Below are positions 3,001 to 9,000 of a stretch of 64,000 nucleotides of DNA, in pieces. Made by a program: the position numbers. Every line of letters starts with the position of its first letter. Within the stretch, counting starts at the first letter, position 1. The stretch comes from an uncultured delta proteobacterium (GTDB taxonomy: Bacteria > Desulfobacterota > Desulfobacteria > Desulfobacterales > SG8-13), in the NCBI GenBank assembly GCA_963848135.1, contig CAWKCK010000001.1:186001-250000 (forward strand). Reading direction: 5' to 3'.

Positions 3001-6000
3001 GGAATTCTCCCGGCGACCAGGAAGAGTCGTAGTCCGCCATGCTGAATCGACAGATGACTGGTAGAGAAGGGTACCTTCTTAAGAAGGCTCTGCCGCGGAA
3101 CGACCAATCCGACTTTCCAGCCGCGCCATTTGGTTTTCAATCGGTTTAGCAGCTTATCAAACATACGGTTGCTATGTTCCACGGAGCCCATGCGCCGGCC
3201 AAAAGGCGGGTTCAGGGTCAACAGCCCGGGCGTACGGCTGAACTCTTCCGGGAGCAGATTGAAGAAATCGCGATTCGCAACCCGTATGGTCTGCGAAAAA
3301 CCGCTATCGGCACTGTTTTTTACCATGGCGTCGCAGGCCGCCGGATCGATATCGGCCGCAAATATAGCGGCGATTTCGGTGTCTATGATTTCCTGTTGCA
3401 GACCTTTGCGGATATACTCCCAGCGTTTTCTGGTGAGGTGGAAGGCCGGCCATTCGGAAAAGGCAAAGTCCCTTAACCAACCGGCTGGTATTTTCCGGGC
3501 CTGCATTGCCGCTTCGAGTGAGAACGAACCCGAGCCGCACATCGGATCAACCAAGGGTTCCGGCGGGGCATAGTTCGCCAGCATCAAAACGGCTGCGGCA
3601 ACGGTTTCCCTCAGAGGGGCTGCGGTGACGTCTTTTTTCAGGCCGCGCCGGTAAAGATTTTCTCCGCTGCTGTCCAAGGAAACGGTAACCTTGTCATTCA
3701 ATATTCGAACAAAAAGTCTCTGACCATAGTGCTCCTTGTTGTCCGGTTGCAATTCGATCGTCATTTTACGCCACCGGCGGGAGATTTCGGACAAAAATCG
3801 ATTGCCGATTGCGCCGCTGTGGTGCAATCGGGATCGGTGGGTCGTGATCTGAAGGCGAGGAAGTGTTCCGGGCCACAGATAGAGTTCCCAGGGGAATTGG
3901 GCTAGATTTTTTTCCAGAGTATGAAAATTGGATGCTTTGAAGGTGTCGATGCGCATGAGAACCCGGTTGGCGGTGCGCAGACAGAGGTTGGCCTTGTAGC
4001 CGTCCTGAAGGTGCCCTGTGAAAGTGACGCCGCCGGTGGTCAGGGACTTTTTCGACGTGCTCAGGGACAACGCCTGCAATTCCTTCAGGCACAGCGGTTC
4101 GAGACCCGGTGCCGTTGCAGCGAAGAATTCGGCTGTTCGAGCGATGACCTGCCGCCTGAGGCGTTTTTCAAATGCCGTTAAATCAGTCATTCGATTCCTT
4201 GTCCGGTTTTTGCCTGCCGATGGTATCAGTTCACAGTGCTGCAACGTCCATTGTGCATCAGACCACAGAATTGTAAGCGTTTACAGGGTGCCGCGGATGC
4301 AAGGCGTCGGGTGCGCAGACGTACTATTGTACTTCAAGTGCCCGACAACAAAGCAGATGCGGTGCCCTGTAAATGCTTACCGCCGATGTCATGATGTCTG
4401 CCAGCTTGATATCCTCTTGTGCTCGCTGTGATGCTCCAGACCCTTTTATTCCTGGCTTCGCGCCCGGATCAGGGCCGGTGCCTTGTCGTCTTGTTCCTGT
4501 TTGAACTGCAAGAGGATGATGGCGGCGATGACGAGACATCCGCCGAGAATCTGGAGCGTATGCATGCGTTCATTGAGGAAGAAGAAAGCGATGGCGCCGG
4601 CGGTTATCGGCTCGAGGATAGCCGTGATGCTGGCGCGGGTCGAGCGGATCAAATTGACGCCTTCCAGGTAGAGCCCGAAGGGAAGGAGGGTGCCCATGAC
4701 GCCAATGTATAAAATCCAGCCCCATTCTACGGCCGTGTATCGATGAAAAAACGCCTCCAGCGGTGGATGAAGGAGGTTCCACACCAACGCGGCGAACAAA
4801 ATTGCATAGAACAGCACCGTCCATGGACTGTACCGGCGCATGCCGTATTCCCCGTGGATCGAGTACCACGCAAATGCAACGGCTGACAGGATGCCGCTGG
4901 CGACGCCGGCCAGGTTCATGCTCAAAAGCGCGAGATCGTAAGCACCGACCACAAAGTAGCATCCCACAGTCGCACCCGATAGCGCCAACACGGTCGATGG
5001 GCTTAGTCGATCTCGGGAAATGACGACCGCATGCAGGGCGATGAAAGACGGGGCCAGGTATTGCAGTAGGATCGCGGCCGCAACATTGATCTTGCTGATG
5101 GCGTACAGGTAGGTGAACTGACAGGCGCCCATCCCGGCGGTTCCGAAAAGAGCAAAGTACCATACGTCCCCGGGCGCAATCCTTAACAGGGCCGGGTTGC
5201 GAAGGGACAGCCAAACCAGCAGGCTCAACACGGCGATTGTGAGCCTGAGTTGCACCAGTTGAAAGGGGGAGATCCCGCTGTTGAAAAGGAATTTGGCCGC
5301 GGAACCGGATACACCCCAAAGAACAGCGGCCAGAATGACGTAGAGGTAACCCCTCCGGACGTCGACAGATCCAATTTCTGATTTCATTGCGGTCATGGGT
5401 GACGTATTGTTAACCGACACATCGCACCGGTGCTGCGTCAGCTGAAAGACAGTGAGTCCGAATGCCATATCGGAACGATAGCGATTCTTTATTGTGACGA
5501 GCCGAATTGATAGTAAGAATTTTTCGGTCCATCGGAATTCTCAAATGCCGTGCGAAATAGGTCCGCCACAAGCATTGTCAGACTATCAGGGGGGGATACC
5601 ATTGTAAATCTGTTTTAACAGCAACTGTTGAAAAACAATTGCGCTTGACAATACGGCGTTAATGGCTGAAGCGGGGCCCTTCCCCCGTTTCAGCGAAAAT
5701 GCTCATTTATCACAAATAAACTCCGCTTTTTCGTCGGATTTTTCCAGATTAATCGACCTTATCACAAGTCATACGAAACTACAGTTAGCTTGGAGGTTTC
5801 TTGGTTATGGTTAGTGTTGGCTGTGGGCGGTTTTGAGCTTGTTACCTCTTGTTTTTTATTGCCGGTGACGTCTCTAATTACTATCCACCTAAGTTCGCAA
5901 ATTATATTTCATCAAATCCAAAGATCGCTGACTGCATTCTTTTCACGCCTGCAAGCGCTCTTTGGCTAAGGTTCATATAGACTCTAAGATCGTGTGCTTT

Positions 6001-9000
6001 CTTCTTATATTCTCTTACATCCTCCTCTGACCAGAAGAGTAGCGATTTTCGTCAGAATATGTCTACAATGCTTGGTTCTTTTGTATTTGCCAGGGTCACT
6101 ATCGGCAGGCAGAACATGGGATCGGACCCAGGAGTCACCTTTTTGATATTTAATTCGCTATCAAGCGCGATCTCCATCGGTCTACCGCTATTGGCACATT
6201 CTGCCTGAATAGTAAAAGACAATTCCTTTCTTAGTAATCTCCCATACACGAAGGGAGCCGCGAATGCGTCTGCGCCTCATGCAGCAAAAAATTGCTCACC
6301 GGAAGAGGCAGTCATTCTGAATCCCGTGTTTTCAAGTGATAGCGGATAGGCCCAATTTATCCTCGAACCATCGCTCCGATAAATGAACGTTTTTAAGTTT
6401 TCAAGTTTGATAATAATTTGAAGCACCTGATCATTTGACATCCCTAATTGCTCGGCGACCAGCTCAGCTGTAATAGGGGCTTTGACAACCGCCATTTTCT
6501 TTACGATAAAATGATGGATGCTACGCTCCTCACTCGTTAAAGAATCTGCATTGGCCTTGGCACTTTTTTCGCCTTTTCTCGCTCCTTTATCTGAAAGCAG
6601 CATAGGGATTCGCATCATTAAACCGCGAAAACCCATGTACAATTTATGTTTCAAATCATTTTTCACTTGTTTGCCCCCCCACCTGCTATTTGTCAATCAA
6701 ACCATATTTATAATCACCAGTTGGTACCACTGTACTCCGCGAGGCTTTGATTTGTTCTTTGATTATAGGCATTGTTGATACATTGAGAGTATCCCAAAAA
6801 TTAATTCCGGCCTTGTGTAGACCCTACATAATTAAATGAAGCGCTTATTTGTCGGTATTTGGATTACCAACTGCGACTAATCTCACCGGCAACGAAAAGT
6901 GTAGCGGAAATACTTTTCGGGGTCACGTCTTGTTAGCACGTAATTTATTCGGAGTTTGGAATTACATCGATCATTCCAGCATTTTTTCTGAACATTTTTT
7001 TTCGATTGATCCAAACAATCAGAACAGCAGCAGCTACAAATAAAACTGTGTCGTAAGGCTGTGCGTCAGGCCAAATTGGATTGATAAGTTGAAAATGGAA
7101 CAGCGCTGGCAACAGGATACTGCCCTTTGAATCGTTGAACAACTGAGTCACGATCACGCTTACGGCAACCGAGCCAACAAAAAAAGGAGTGAAAGACCAG
7201 GCGCTTTGGGGTGTACCGCTCAAAAGGAATGCTGGAAAGTGCCACAACCCCCAGATGACGCCTAAAATCAACCCTGCCCAGATCGGAGAGAGTCTGCGTT
7301 GCAGTAGCGGCAGCGCCAGTCCCCGCCAACCAAACTCTTCGACAGGACCCTTTATTGCCATGAGCATCGAAGCAACTACAAGCGCTTGAAACGATGAAAT
7401 GGGAAACGGTTCCGCAAGCAGGTTTCCCTTCATCGCGGAACCTCCGTAGAAAAGAAGCGGAATACCAATGATCAGAAAGGCGTACCATGATCTTGAACAA
7501 CGCCAAAGCAACAGCCGGGAAAAGTAGCGCCGCAAGCCATTTACGCCACTGCTGAATGTAATAATGATGAAGGCTGAAATCGCTGGTGCATAGACTGCCA
7601 GAAAAAATAGCGGATGTTGCCCGGTCAATTCCCCGAAAATCGGTGTCATTCTGTCTGGAAGTAAGATGAAAAGAGCAAGAATACCCCATGCCAAACCGAA
7701 AGCGATAACCAGAAATGGGACGATAGCAATGCTGGGAACCTGGCGCAAACAGGTTTTCGAGGAGCCGGTGGCCATATGAGATCTCTTTAAAAGTGATAGC
7801 AAAATACAAGCTGGACTGAACATTCGCTGCTAAAAATTTAAATTCCCTTCGATGCTGGTATGCTACTACAAGTATCAAAAGGTTCCAACAGGCCACAAGA
7901 TGTTAGGCTCTAATGAAGTTGGCTTAATCCATATTCTAAAGTTGTCATTCAGATTTTATACATTCGGTTTCTTAATCCTCATTTTTTTAATCCGTGAAGA
8001 CAGGGTAGTTGGTTTAACTCCAAGAAGTTGCGCTGCTCCCCCAGCACCGTAAATCTTCCAATTGCTTTTTTTCAAAGCGGCGAGGATGTTCTGCCGTTCC
8101 AGTCGTCGCATTTCGGATTCGGGAATAATTAGCCCTTCATCATTCGATTCCAATTCGATTGCGGTTACCCGGTGCGATTTGCTAAGTCCATCATCATGCG
8201 GCAGGACGAACTGGAGTGCACGACCTTGGGAGGTGATTGCTGCACGTTCGATGATATTCTGGAGCTCGCGCACATTTCCTGGCCAATCATAATTCTGAAG
8301 CTGTTCAAGGTTGGATGCGGATAATCGTGGAAGCCTATGAATTCCTCTCTTTTGGATTAACCCTAAAAAATGTTCGGCAATTAAAGGTATATCTTCTTTG
8401 CGAAGCCGAAGTGGAGCCACCTCGATGGGAAAAACATTGAGGCGGTAATAAAGGTCCTGACGAAAACTTCCCTTTGCAATATCCTTCTTCAAATTGCGGT
8501 TGGTAGCGGCGATGATGCGTACATCCACTTGTCGTGTTACCTCTTCGCCGACACGTTCGTATTGACCATCTTGTAACACCCGAAGGAGTTTGCTTTGCAG
8601 GTCAAGTGGAATTTCGCCAACTTCGTCAAGGAAAAGCGTCCCACCATCAGCGGCTTCAAACCTTCCCGCCCTATCTCTTACTGCACCGCTGTATGCACCT
8701 TTGACATGGCCGAAAAATTCACTCTCATATAGTTCCCTATTTATGGAAGCGCAGTTGACTTTTATAAGCGGTCGATCATGCCGTTTACTGCATTTGTGTA
8801 TCTCACGGGCAACAAGCTCTTTACCAGTACCGGATTCACCAAAAATAATAACGTTGGCGTCAGTAGGAGCAACCAGCTCAACTTGCTTCAAAACGCTTTG
8901 CAGGGCATCGCTTTGACCAATAATATCGCCGAAGGCGCGGGCTTCTTTTACTTCCTCTCGCAGGTATGAACACTCCAACTCCAACTGATCTTGAAGTCGC

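Follow-up and report, generated by a model that had tools for sequence, protein, structure and literature searches.

The closest described relatives of the protein analysed here are MerB (Pfam PF03243; PDB 3f0o, 3f2f and 1s6l, with 5c17 for MerB2) and SaoL (NF040728). MerB is the bacterial organomercurial (alkylmercury) lyase of mer operons, which splits mercury-carbon bonds; its metal ligands are cysteines, and its active-site positions are Cys96, the proton donor Asp99 and Cys159. According to the available text of its description, SaoL is a MerB-like organometallic lyase, a selenoprotein of anaerobes that is truncated at its UGA codon in databases. The SaoL Sec lines up with MerB Cys159, and equivalents of Cys96 and Asp99 are retained (bioRxiv 10.1101/2022.07.06.499078). 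In the available part of a 2026 review table of prokaryotic selenoproteins, SaoL, with 1 Sec, is the sole MerB-type entry.

We describe a gene located in a stretch of 64,000 nucleotides from an uncultured delta proteobacterium, hereafter the window. Its predicted product shares a common whole-chain fold with MerB over 202-205 aligned residues, and the three active-site positions as well as the structural Cys117 align. Both metal ligands, cysteines in MerB, would be Sec in the window protein. It also differs from MerB in being extended at the N-terminus by about 28 residues and in lacking a Cys160 equivalent; it is found in strict anaerobes and has no mer operon. As far as the available text on SaoL goes, its single Sec lies in a C-U dipeptide and the first ligand position is still Cys, whereas Sec is predicted at the first position too in the window protein, and the second Sec follows Phe (Phe or Tyr in the family) rather than Cys. 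SaoL resides in a nine-gene SAO locus according to the same source, whereas the neighbours of the window family vary. We found no published report of a double-Sec MerB-like protein. It appears to be a new form of the known MerB type, apparently unreported in print.

Reading frame, fold and active-site positions

Under translation table 11, the frame stops at 6277, which gives a 129-aa gene call whose NCBI entry (P0113) is a hypothetical protein. Read through TGA, 5902..6666 of the minus strand encodes 254 residues, and TGA occurs in frame exactly twice, as codons 130 and 205 (Table 1). The genome-wide survey's note had taken the 129-aa call for the front part of such a protein. Re-reading of the frame located both TGAs, and the motifs AA-U-GAD and IVDIF-U described there were seen again, as FFAA-U-GAD and SIVDIF-U-RKS. 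The GTG start is supported because four close orthologues (L018, L019, L021 and L022) have ATG in the same alignment column. Databases know the double-Sec family merely as truncated fragments. A search of RNA runs found none with the double-Sec MerB-like sequence.

Table 1. Features of the double-Sec MerB-like gene (window positions) and of a second such gene elsewhere in the genome (contig positions)
Feature	Position	Strand	Remarks
254-aa MerB-like putative double selenoprotein, CDS	5902..6666	-	GTG start 6664-6666; TAA stop 5902-5904
First UGA, predicted Sec130	6277..6279	-	aligned to MerB Cys96
Asp133 codon	6268..6270	-	aligned to MerB proton donor Asp99
Candidate SECIS after first UGA	6239..6257	-	CUCCCUU-CGUGU-AUGGGAG; stem begins 19 nt past UGA
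Cys157, true Cys, invariant	6196..6198	-	aligned to MerB Cys117 (27-sequence alignment, HMMER)
Second UGA, predicted Sec205	6052..6054	-	aligned to MerB Cys159
Predicted SECIS after second UGA	6022..6039	-	CUCUUCU-GGUC-AGAGGAG; stem begins 12 nt past UGA
Second double-Sec MerB-like gene	G000:C5:51757-52449		231 aa; Pfam MerB 55 bits

The read-through protein matches Pfam MerB PF03243 over residues 109-226 (E 1.8e-10, 41.3 bits, above the gathering score of 27). The NCBIfam cut-offs are not reached, either for MerB (NF009710, 46.4 bits vs 193; NF033555, 34.4 bits vs 200) or for SaoL (NF040728, 46.2 bits vs 140). These values reproduce all the scores of the survey (PF03243 E 1.8e-10; about 46 bits against 193 and 140). 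Its separation of the protein from SaoL also holds, on 46 bits against 140 and on F-U in place of C-U. We reject an identity with SaoL on these two grounds and on the extra Sec at the first ligand position.

An AlphaFold2 model of the 254-aa protein (pLDDT 89.1, pTM 0.87) was compared with known structures. VIA-align superimposed it on MerB2 5c17_A with Z 22.6 and an rmsd of 2.7 over 205 of 206 residues, and on MerB 3f2g_A with Z 19.0; the next match has just Z 5.2. Every one of the 11 top Foldseek matches is a MerB or MerB2. The whole-chain fold of the model is that of MerB, as claimed before, at a sequence identity to MerB of 13-20%. Residues ~37-110 form a winged-helix-like domain with ArsR/SmtB and MarR metal-sensing regulators as structural neighbours (VIA-align, Z 4-5). 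A winged-helix-like N-terminal domain is present in MerB too.

In the printed HMMER alignment, MerB Cys96 is matched by the first U, Asp99 by Asp133 and Cys159 by the second U, in agreement with the Sec/Asp/Sec assignment of the survey. The aligned profiles thus indicate that Sec130, Asp133 and Sec205 correspond to these three residues. The catalytic triad of MerB is kept in place with its chemistry changed: UGA (Sec) replaces both cysteines and Asp is retained. Cys157 is part of a C-x-x-C motif among more distant family members.

Conservation of both UGA codons and of the downstream hairpins

Matches to the double-Sec family were found in 39 of 401 sampled genomes of the order, 34 of them at the strict threshold of E <= 1e-20. 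All near-full-length matches in this sample have two in-frame TGAs, or three if the true stop codon is itself a TGA. In a phylum sample, 33 of 401 genomes match, and both TGAs are kept in 26/26 near-full-length matches, one of which is the window's own genome. A search of 185,579 species genomes gave 433 relatives, the best 80 of which were inspected for the motifs: U at the first position and Asp occur in 74/74 loci with both motifs found, and U at the second position in 76/76 loci. Another 31 loci of U/D/U form come from metagenomes. Altogether, no near-complete relative examined lacks either TGA; these amount to more than 150 loci, spread over several phyla. The claim that both U positions and Asp are conserved is borne out by the 27-sequence alignment, where both TGAs and Asp are invariant, and by the 74/74 further loci. 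By these counts, the two-TGA pattern lies far beyond chance. The protein is no isolated curiosity but belongs to a large multi-phylum family widespread in oxygen-free habitats.

Comparison with L018 gave dN/dS values of 0.23 for codons 1-129, 0.06 for codons 131-204 and 0.08 for codons 206-250, which points to purifying selection before, between and after both TGAs.

Cys also occurs at the first position. Among 164 core sequences, 154 have U there and 10 have Cys; Cys is found in 48 of the 120 best database matches and likewise in 15 metagenome loci. The swap takes place between relatives that are 65-69% identical, and the Cys-at-position-1 forms make up one nested clade. At the second position, Cys was seen in 2 of the 120 best database matches (P0037 and P0038), and the codon is still UGA in the 14 Cys-at-position-1 relatives whose second motif could be located.

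The conserved hairpin that the survey had reported after each TGA was examined across loci, and compensatory changes were found in both. For the first hairpin, 91.1% of the alignment cells are paired vs 37-62% with the partner slid. Pair 24-40 is GC in 16 sequences, UA in 10 and GU in 1, and compensatory changes include CCC..GGG to UCC..GGA and ACG..CGC to ACA..UGC. In the window sequence itself, 6/7 stem positions pair. Among metagenome loci, 7/7 pairs form in 33 of 35 UGA forms vs none of the 15 Cys forms, in all of which the hairpin is degraded. The second hairpin is encoded by codons for L-F-W-S-E-E here and F-F-W-S-E-E in most relatives. Its GGUC loop is invariant in 31/31 sequences, although part of the conservation of both hairpins could reflect the protein, since they lie inside conserved coding sequence (TPFVxGR and FFWSEE). 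Pair 16-33 is UA in 21 sequences and CG in 5, and pair 22-27 is UA in 24, CG in 5 and UG in 1. Support for the hairpins comes from this cross-locus comparison and not from energy, because in single-sequence folding the window hairpins are no better than shuffled sequences (z 0.13 and 0.38).

The genome encodes selA (622 bits), selB (374 bits) and selD (372 bits) and a tRNA-Sec with anticodon tca. Its selD has an in-frame TGA of its own, and the loop of the selD SECIS is GGUC, as in the second hairpin. Of the window's 25 ORFs that reach 300 aa or more, 6 end in TGA as an ordinary stop. TGA conservation, dN/dS below 1, the Sec machinery, the covarying hairpins and the loss of the first hairpin in the Cys clade together indicate that both TGAs are real Sec codons.

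Genomic context and a second double-Sec family

By Pfam, the neighbours in the window are an EamA transporter, an Rce1-like protease, a sigma-54 activator and an RlmL-like methyltransferase, with no link to metals. That neighbours are not conserved among relatives had been noted before, and the same was seen across the window's clade. No mer operon context (MerA, MerR, MerT/P) surrounds the gene in the window, and no MerA in the genome reaches the cut-off (best 390 bits vs 454). The neighbourhoods examined contain no pointer to arsenic, tin or selenium metabolism, and no conserved redox partner adjoins the gene in those compared. The Pfam scan of the window neighbours revealed no Sao family. 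The SaoB and SaoC models matched nothing in the 98.65%-complete genome, nor in control genomes either, so that their sensitivity is unproven. In more distant members, a MarR or MerR regulator is often found directly upstream; these regulators are without cysteines in the members inspected.

The window's own genome carries HgcA (E 4.5e-126). HgcA was found at E <= 1e-90 in 26 of 34 family-bearing genomes; for comparison, 187 of all 401 sampled genomes score over the cut-off. This weak association with mercury methylation (hgcA) is suggestive only, because the family-bearing genomes are related.

The window's genome also contains a second double-Sec MerB-like gene (Table 1), with two in-frame TGAs at equivalent positions. 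The two proteins share 23% identity over just 62 residues. The acidic residue three positions past the first Sec is Glu in the second family and Asp in the window protein, and the spacing between the two Sec is 65 residues vs 75. A GGUC-loop hairpin follows the second UGA, as in the window gene. The second family matches 67 of 401 genomes of the order and is thus more frequent than the window family.

Proposed function and alternatives

By analogy with MerB, the likeliest function is probably protonolysis of an organometal carbon bond. We favour, if only by a little more than even chance, a cytoplasmic MerB-fold bis-Sec enzyme that cleaves such a bond, most probably in methylmercury or another organomercurial. 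We propose that each UGA would be read as Sec because of the short hairpin downstream. SelB-dependent recoding at a first SECIS with a 7-bp stem and CGUGY loop and a second with a 7-bp stem and GGUC loop would place Sec at both metal-ligand positions, Asp being kept. As in MerB, the metal of the organometal compound would be taken up by the two ligands, here selenolates. Protonation of the leaving carbon by Asp133 would follow, so that the hydrocarbon is released and the metal is held between the two Se. At neutral pH selenolates are unprotonated, and their affinity for Hg exceeds that of thiolates; such a site could therefore trap organomercurials and split them in anoxic habitats that are sulfidic and rich in thiols. 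According to the available text of a review, selone mimics of organomercurial lyase split Hg-C bonds faster than sulfur analogues (PMC11639659). A bis-selenolate Hg(II) product would be very hard to release, which speaks against fast turnover. Since MerA is absent, sulfide, selenide or thiols would have to take over the metal; alternatively, turnover of the protein may be slow. The low identity to MerB (13-20%), an NCBIfam MerB score far under the cut-off, and the lack of a mer operon, MerA or metal-linked neighbours weigh against this reading.

Some of these points would suit a real double selenoprotein of MerB fold that is no lyase. It could bind, buffer, transfer or sense soft metals (Hg, Cu, Cd, Ag) with high affinity, or be a single-use protein. 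Hg should bind Se very tightly, there is no MerA to accept a product, and the winged-helix-like domain resembles ArsR/SmtB and MarR regulators (Z 4-5), although we know of no DNA-binding role for the N-terminal domain of MerB. Binding of other metals by MerB2 and MerB D99S is indicated by PDB titles and by the available text of the preprint by Haft and Gwadz. However, the proton-donor Asp, which would be dispensable in a pure binding site, is invariant in all members examined, and the acid is kept in the second family as Glu. We regard a binding or sensing role as unlikely, though worth keeping in mind.

A MerB-type lyase for another carbon-metal(loid) bond that occurs in anoxic sediments, for example in methylated arsenic, tin, lead, selenium or tellurium compounds, is in our view rather improbable. 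Sec at both ligands is a large change of the metal site, mer context is absent, and PDB entries of MerB with organotin and organolead (5u79-5u7c) belong to the same sequence cluster. In the available text of their preprint, Haft and Gwadz argue likewise for the single Sec of SaoL (bioRxiv 10.1101/2022.07.06.499078). Against such a substrate, the neighbourhoods lack arsenic, tin or selenium metabolism pointers and the sole association found, though weak, is with hgcA.

Diselenide redox motifs occur in other selenoproteins. The two positions are close in MerB, where they bind one Hg atom (PDB entry titles). An oxidoreductase with a redox-active diselenide on a MerB scaffold is nevertheless very unlikely: the invariant Asp/Glu three residues past the first Sec suits protonolysis, not redox, and the protein has neither a thioredoxin-like fold or motif nor a conserved redox partner adjoining its gene.

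A pseudogene with two nonsense mutations, or three small ORFs, would fit table 11 callers that end at the first TGA and the NCBI listing of a 129-aa hypothetical protein, but this reading is refuted by the same two TGA columns in more than 150 loci of different orders and phyla, by dN/dS of 0.06-0.23 in all three segments and by covarying hairpins after both TGAs, in a genome with complete Sec machinery.

Returning to the favoured organometal lyase, one may tentatively ask, as a possibility we consider distinctly less than even, whether both double-Sec families are the unidentified enzymes that break down methylmercury independently of mer in anoxic sediments, soils and peat. If so, all merB-based surveys would have missed them, because gene callers cut at the first UGA, and the bis-selenolate site would let the enzymes outcompete sulfide and thiols for methylmercury. 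The hosts of the two families are sulfate reducers, syntrophs and Anaerolineales, often with hgcA in the same genome.

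Decoding of the two in-frame UGA codons

The MerB-like gene of the window very probably encodes a genuine double selenoprotein, with the MerB fold and selenocysteine (Sec) at both metal-ligand positions. TGA codons 130 and 205 are the sole interruptions of its 254-codon frame, and a purine-rich AGGTGGGGGGG stretch precedes the GTG start. The genome-wide survey's note had proposed such a protein, and each of its figures was obtained again. The Pfam MerB model matches the read-through protein at residues 109-226 with 41.3 bits (E 1.8e-10), which passes the gathering score of 27. 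The score against the NCBIfam MerB model, 46.4 bits, is far below the cut-off of 193, and NCBIfam release 20 contains no model claiming the protein.

Coordinates of the features discussed (window positions unless a contig or locus is named; G000 is the genome holding the window)
Feature	Position	Strand	Description
MerB-like selenoprotein CDS	6666 -> 5902	(-)	254 codons; GTG start 6664-6666; TAA stop 5902-5904
First in-frame TGA	6277-6279	(-)	codon 130
Hairpin after first UGA	6239-6257	(-)	CUCCCUU-CGUGU-AUGGGAG; 19 bases past first UGA
Second in-frame TGA	6052-6054	(-)	codon 205
Hairpin after second UGA	6022-6039	(-)	CUCUUCU-GGUC-AGAGGAG; 7-bp stem, GGUC loop; 12 bases past second UGA
Rce1-like (CPBP) membrane protease	6945-7823	(-)	upstream of selenoprotein gene, same strand
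GAF-domain sigma-54 activator	7956-9584	(-)	upstream of selenoprotein gene, same strand
selD hairpin of the same genome	locus L012 (contig C3)		UCAGUCC-GGUC-GGACUGA; starts 10 nt after selD UGA; in-genome SECIS reference
Family B gene	G000:C5:51757-52449 = locus L001 1294-1986, outside window	(+)	231 aa, two in-frame TGAs

An alternative genetic code, with TGA read as Trp or Gly, was rejected because TGA ends 6 of the 25 ORFs of at least 300 aa within the window, where it is thus an ordinary stop, and because the genome possesses Sec machinery (selB, 374 bits; selA, 622 bits; selD; tRNA-Sec). The selD gene itself encodes a selenoprotein, with an in-frame TGA in the motif CG-U-AAK.

The two TGAs were said to be kept in orthologues, and this held in order, phylum and species-wide samples as well as in a 27-sequence alignment. 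In the order sample, 39 of 401 genomes match the window protein, 34 of them at E <= 1e-20. All near-full-length matches carry either two in-frame TGAs or three, the third being a true stop directly after the conserved FGF end. The phylum-wide sample gave matches in 33 of 401 genomes, own genome counted, and two in-frame TGAs in 26/26 near-full-length matches, of which the own genome is one. Across 185,579 species, represented by one genome each, 433 stretches encoding a relative were found. Both motifs are present in 74 of the best 80 of these 433, with U, D and U in 74/74; the remaining six comprise two loci cut by contig ends and four outside the motif patterns (L073, L075, L077 and L115). 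In the 27-sequence alignment, where identity to the window protein goes down to 29%, U130, D133, U205 and C157 are invariant. Among 28 family loci that contain both UGAs, 27 have the two Sec exactly 75 residues apart; in the exception, L020, the distance is 69.

As judged from substitution patterns, all three segments of the gene are translated: relative to the two closest orthologues, dN/dS values are 0.19-0.23 ahead of the first TGA, 0.06-0.14 from there to the second and 0.08-0.09 beyond it. Search of sequencing runs listed no RNA run containing the window gene sequence; the best DNA run shares 0.39 of its words.

Hairpins downstream of the UGA codons

A conserved hairpin had been reported after each UGA, and comparative evidence bears this out on both sides. 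For the second one, the GGUC loop is invariant in 31/31 aligned sequences and 87.9% of cells are paired, versus 47-59% after shifting the partner by one to three columns. Two pairs covary: 16-33 (UA in 21, CG in 5) and 22-27 (UA in 24, CG in 5, UG in 1), the latter through a Trp-to-Arg codon change accompanied by a matching synonymous Ser change. The selD SECIS of the same genome has the same GGUC loop at a nearly equal distance from its UGA. The second hairpin is encoded by the codons of F-F-W-S-E-E, which is why this peptide is the most conserved of the family.

For the first hairpin, 91.1% of cells are paired, versus 37-62% after such a shift, and pair 24-40 is GC in 16, UA in 10 and GU in 1 sequences, by way of synonymous Thr and Arg codons. 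A control came from scanning metagenomes with a relative having Cys at position 1 (the first UGA codon) as the seed, which returned both UGA and Cys forms; 9 of 59 metagenome loci fell outside the motif patterns and were left out of the counts. The stem has 7/7 pairs in 33 of the 35 loci with UGA at position 1, among which compensatory pairs are found (CCC..GGG to UCC..GGA; ACG..CGC to ACA..UGC), whereas only 5 or 6 pairs are left in 15/15 loci with a Cys codon. Therefore, the first hairpin is kept only where a UGA needs decoding. In 14 of the 15 Cys-codon loci, an otherwise invariant Gly is replaced by Ala or Ser. Without the first SECIS, the Cys form offers a natural control that shows the constraint placed by a SECIS on coding sequence.

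Two results speak against the hairpins. Single-sequence folding of 68 nt from about each UGA of the window was no better than shuffles (z 0.13 and 0.38). When window 5700-6900 was compared with Rfam at E <= 10, no curated SECIS family was found; the sole match, the plant-virus element TCV_H4, was discarded as a chance match (17 bits against 50).

Relation to MerB and SaoL

An AlphaFold2 model was calculated from the 27-sequence alignment (pLDDT 89.1, pTM 0.87). With one representative per PDB cluster, its closest structures are MerB2 (5c17_A; Z 22.6, rmsd 2.7, 205/206 residues) and MerB (3f2g_A; Z 19.0), the next match having Z 5.2. The 11 best Foldseek matches are all MerB or MerB2, and the family profile also matches both by sequence (E 2.8e-8 to 1.7e-4). 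Compared with MerB, residues 1-28 of the window protein form an extension. In MerB, Cys96 and Cys159 bind mercury and Asp99 donates a proton. The survey's note had placed U130, D133 and U205 on these three residues, and the printed profile alignment agrees: ya-A-C-av-D is aligned to YAW-C96-AL-D99 and ida-F-C-kks to QSF-C159-S160 of a C160S mutant chain. The invariant Cys157 is aligned to MerB Cys117. On the basis of the alignment and the whole-chain fold match, residues 130, 133 and 205 are predicted to form one site. The window protein would then be a rare case among bacterial enzymes, both ligands of a single metal site being Sec.

The nearest described protein is SaoL. As described in bioRxiv 10.1101/2022.07.06.499078, this MerB-like selenoprotein of the nine-gene SAO locus has a single Sec, which stands in a C-U dipeptide and aligns to Cys159, and retains Cys at the first position. 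The window protein differs, as had been claimed, by having F-U instead of C-U, an extra Sec at the first ligand and a score of 46.2 bits against the NCBIfam SaoL model, far below its cut-off of 140. It also appears to be in no SAO locus; the SaoB and SaoC models found nothing in the genome, and nothing in control genomes either. In the table of prokaryotic selenoproteins of a 2026 review, SaoL with its one Sec is the sole MerB-type entry, as it is in a 2022 review. No publication on a MerB relative with two Sec was found by full-text literature search, which covers few subscription journals.

With Sec, Asp and Sec at the positions of MerB Cys96, Asp99 and Cys159, the simplest reading is that the window protein would carry out MerB-like protonolysis with two selenolates. 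In the MerB account of Haft and Gwadz (bioRxiv 10.1101/2022.07.06.499078), the two cysteines bind mercury and Asp99 protonates the leaving carbon. Section 4.3 of a review (PMC11639659) describes selone mimics of the lyase that cleave Hg-C bonds faster than their sulfur analogues, with HgSe-type end products. This reading has weak points: a bis-selenolate site should release its product only with difficulty, no MerA passing the cut-off was found in the genome, and the gene neighbourhoods say little. The mercury methylation gene hgcA is present (E 4.5e-126), and among the 34 family-bearing genomes of the order sample HgcA was found in 26 at E <= 1e-90 and as a partial match in 3, with none in 5. 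Over the order, hgcA is above cut-off in 187 of 401 genomes, with no in-frame TGA among the matches listed. Since the genomes are related to each other, the association of the family with hgcA is only a hint. With little more than even confidence, we favour organometal lyase chemistry as the best-supported function of the window protein; methylmercury would be the leading candidate substrate.

Methylmercury is both made and destroyed in anoxic habitats. To our knowledge, MerB, encoded in mer operons, is the only known demethylating enzyme. The family provides a concrete, testable demethylation candidate in organisms of anoxic habitats. The contribution of selenium to protonolysis of metal-carbon bonds would be directly measurable by comparing the Sec,Sec form with its Cys,Sec and Cys,Cys counterparts.

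Family members and gene neighbourhoods

The window protein belongs to a large, multi-phylum and mis-annotated family. The family profile has 769 database matches at E <= 0.001. Among the best 120 of these 769, TGA was read under another code in 52 JGI calls, which show Trp at both positions; 11 entries end at the first TGA; in 48, position 1 is Cys and the sequence ends just short of position 2 (the second UGA codon); and 2 combine Ser at position 1 with Cys at position 2. NCBI records of the family consist only of 129-aa or 170-aa fragments. The candidate is hidden by current annotation because NCBI holds only such fragments and JGI reads the TGAs as Trp; such entries, with W in place of both Sec, could lead alignments and profile building astray. 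Many of the JGI metagenome calls (P0002-P0036) are full length only through TGA to Trp translation on short contigs. The records name as hosts Desulfobacterales, Syntrophales and Smithellaceae, Desulfomonilaceae, Desulfarculales, Anaerolineales and one Candidatus Abyssobacteria genome; metagenome-assembled genomes make up most of the records, and a few are single-cell genomes.

At the DNA level, the Cys-at-position-1 forms have UGA at position 2 and, after it, the same hairpin with the GGUC loop. In a quick maximum-likelihood IQ-TREE tree (148 rows, rooted with the second family), these forms group together in one clade (SH-aLRT 96), which is nested within the double-Sec forms, and position 1 is Sec in 154 and Cys in 10 of 164 core sequences. 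For these reasons, double Sec is the usual state within the sample, and probably the older one. The clade includes metagenome contigs (L157-L170 and L214) and proteins P0048 and P0079-P0105; in NCBI and JGI its members are 170-207-aa hypothetical proteins ending ...IINDY, and about the first 30 residues are missing in most of them. The two Ser/Cys proteins, P0037 (248 aa) and P0038 (250 aa) from JGI/Logan, are full-length relatives without Sec. P0037 has His in place of Asp. The two may represent a form in which the metal site was lost.

The genome also encodes a member of a second, distinct double-Sec MerB-like family (family B), with motifs WFGQ-U-GFE and LPYA-U-STMNLFRSEEHA. Glu replaces Asp, the two Sec are 65 residues apart, and the hairpin past the second UGA (CUCUUCC-GGUC-GGAAGAG) is of the same type as that of the window gene. 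Matches to family B occur in 67 of the 401 genomes in the order sample; about 50 are near full length, and each of these carries two TGAs. Of 20 loci, 5 fell outside the motif patterns and were left out. A few relatives at 25-30% identity are without TGAs.

Gene neighbourhoods are uninformative and give no clear function. Besides the protease and the activator, the window gene has an EamA transporter and an RlmL-like methyltransferase as neighbours. Comparison of 61 loci (the window and 60 others) revealed no conserved neighbour in the window's clade, in line with the survey's note. A sigma-54 promoter consensus gave 33 matches against 35 expected; no match lies upstream of the gene on the minus strand, and none lies between the activator and protease genes and the selenoprotein gene. 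A sigma-70 and terminator scan of window 5400-7100 found none on the minus strand. Beside more distant members, a MarR regulator lies directly upstream on the same strand in 13/61 loci, a MerR-type regulator adjoins the gene in 6/61 (upstream in 5), an ABC ATPase is close by in 9/61, a 4HBT thioesterase is close by in 8/61, mostly just downstream, and a GNAT acetyltransferase adjoins the gene in 4/61. Places listed for these neighbourhoods are L084 7469-7918, L100 2981-3562, L058 7495-7959 and L056 7540-7962; the regulators that were read are without cysteine. In one database entry, P0099, the protein is fused to a GNAT.
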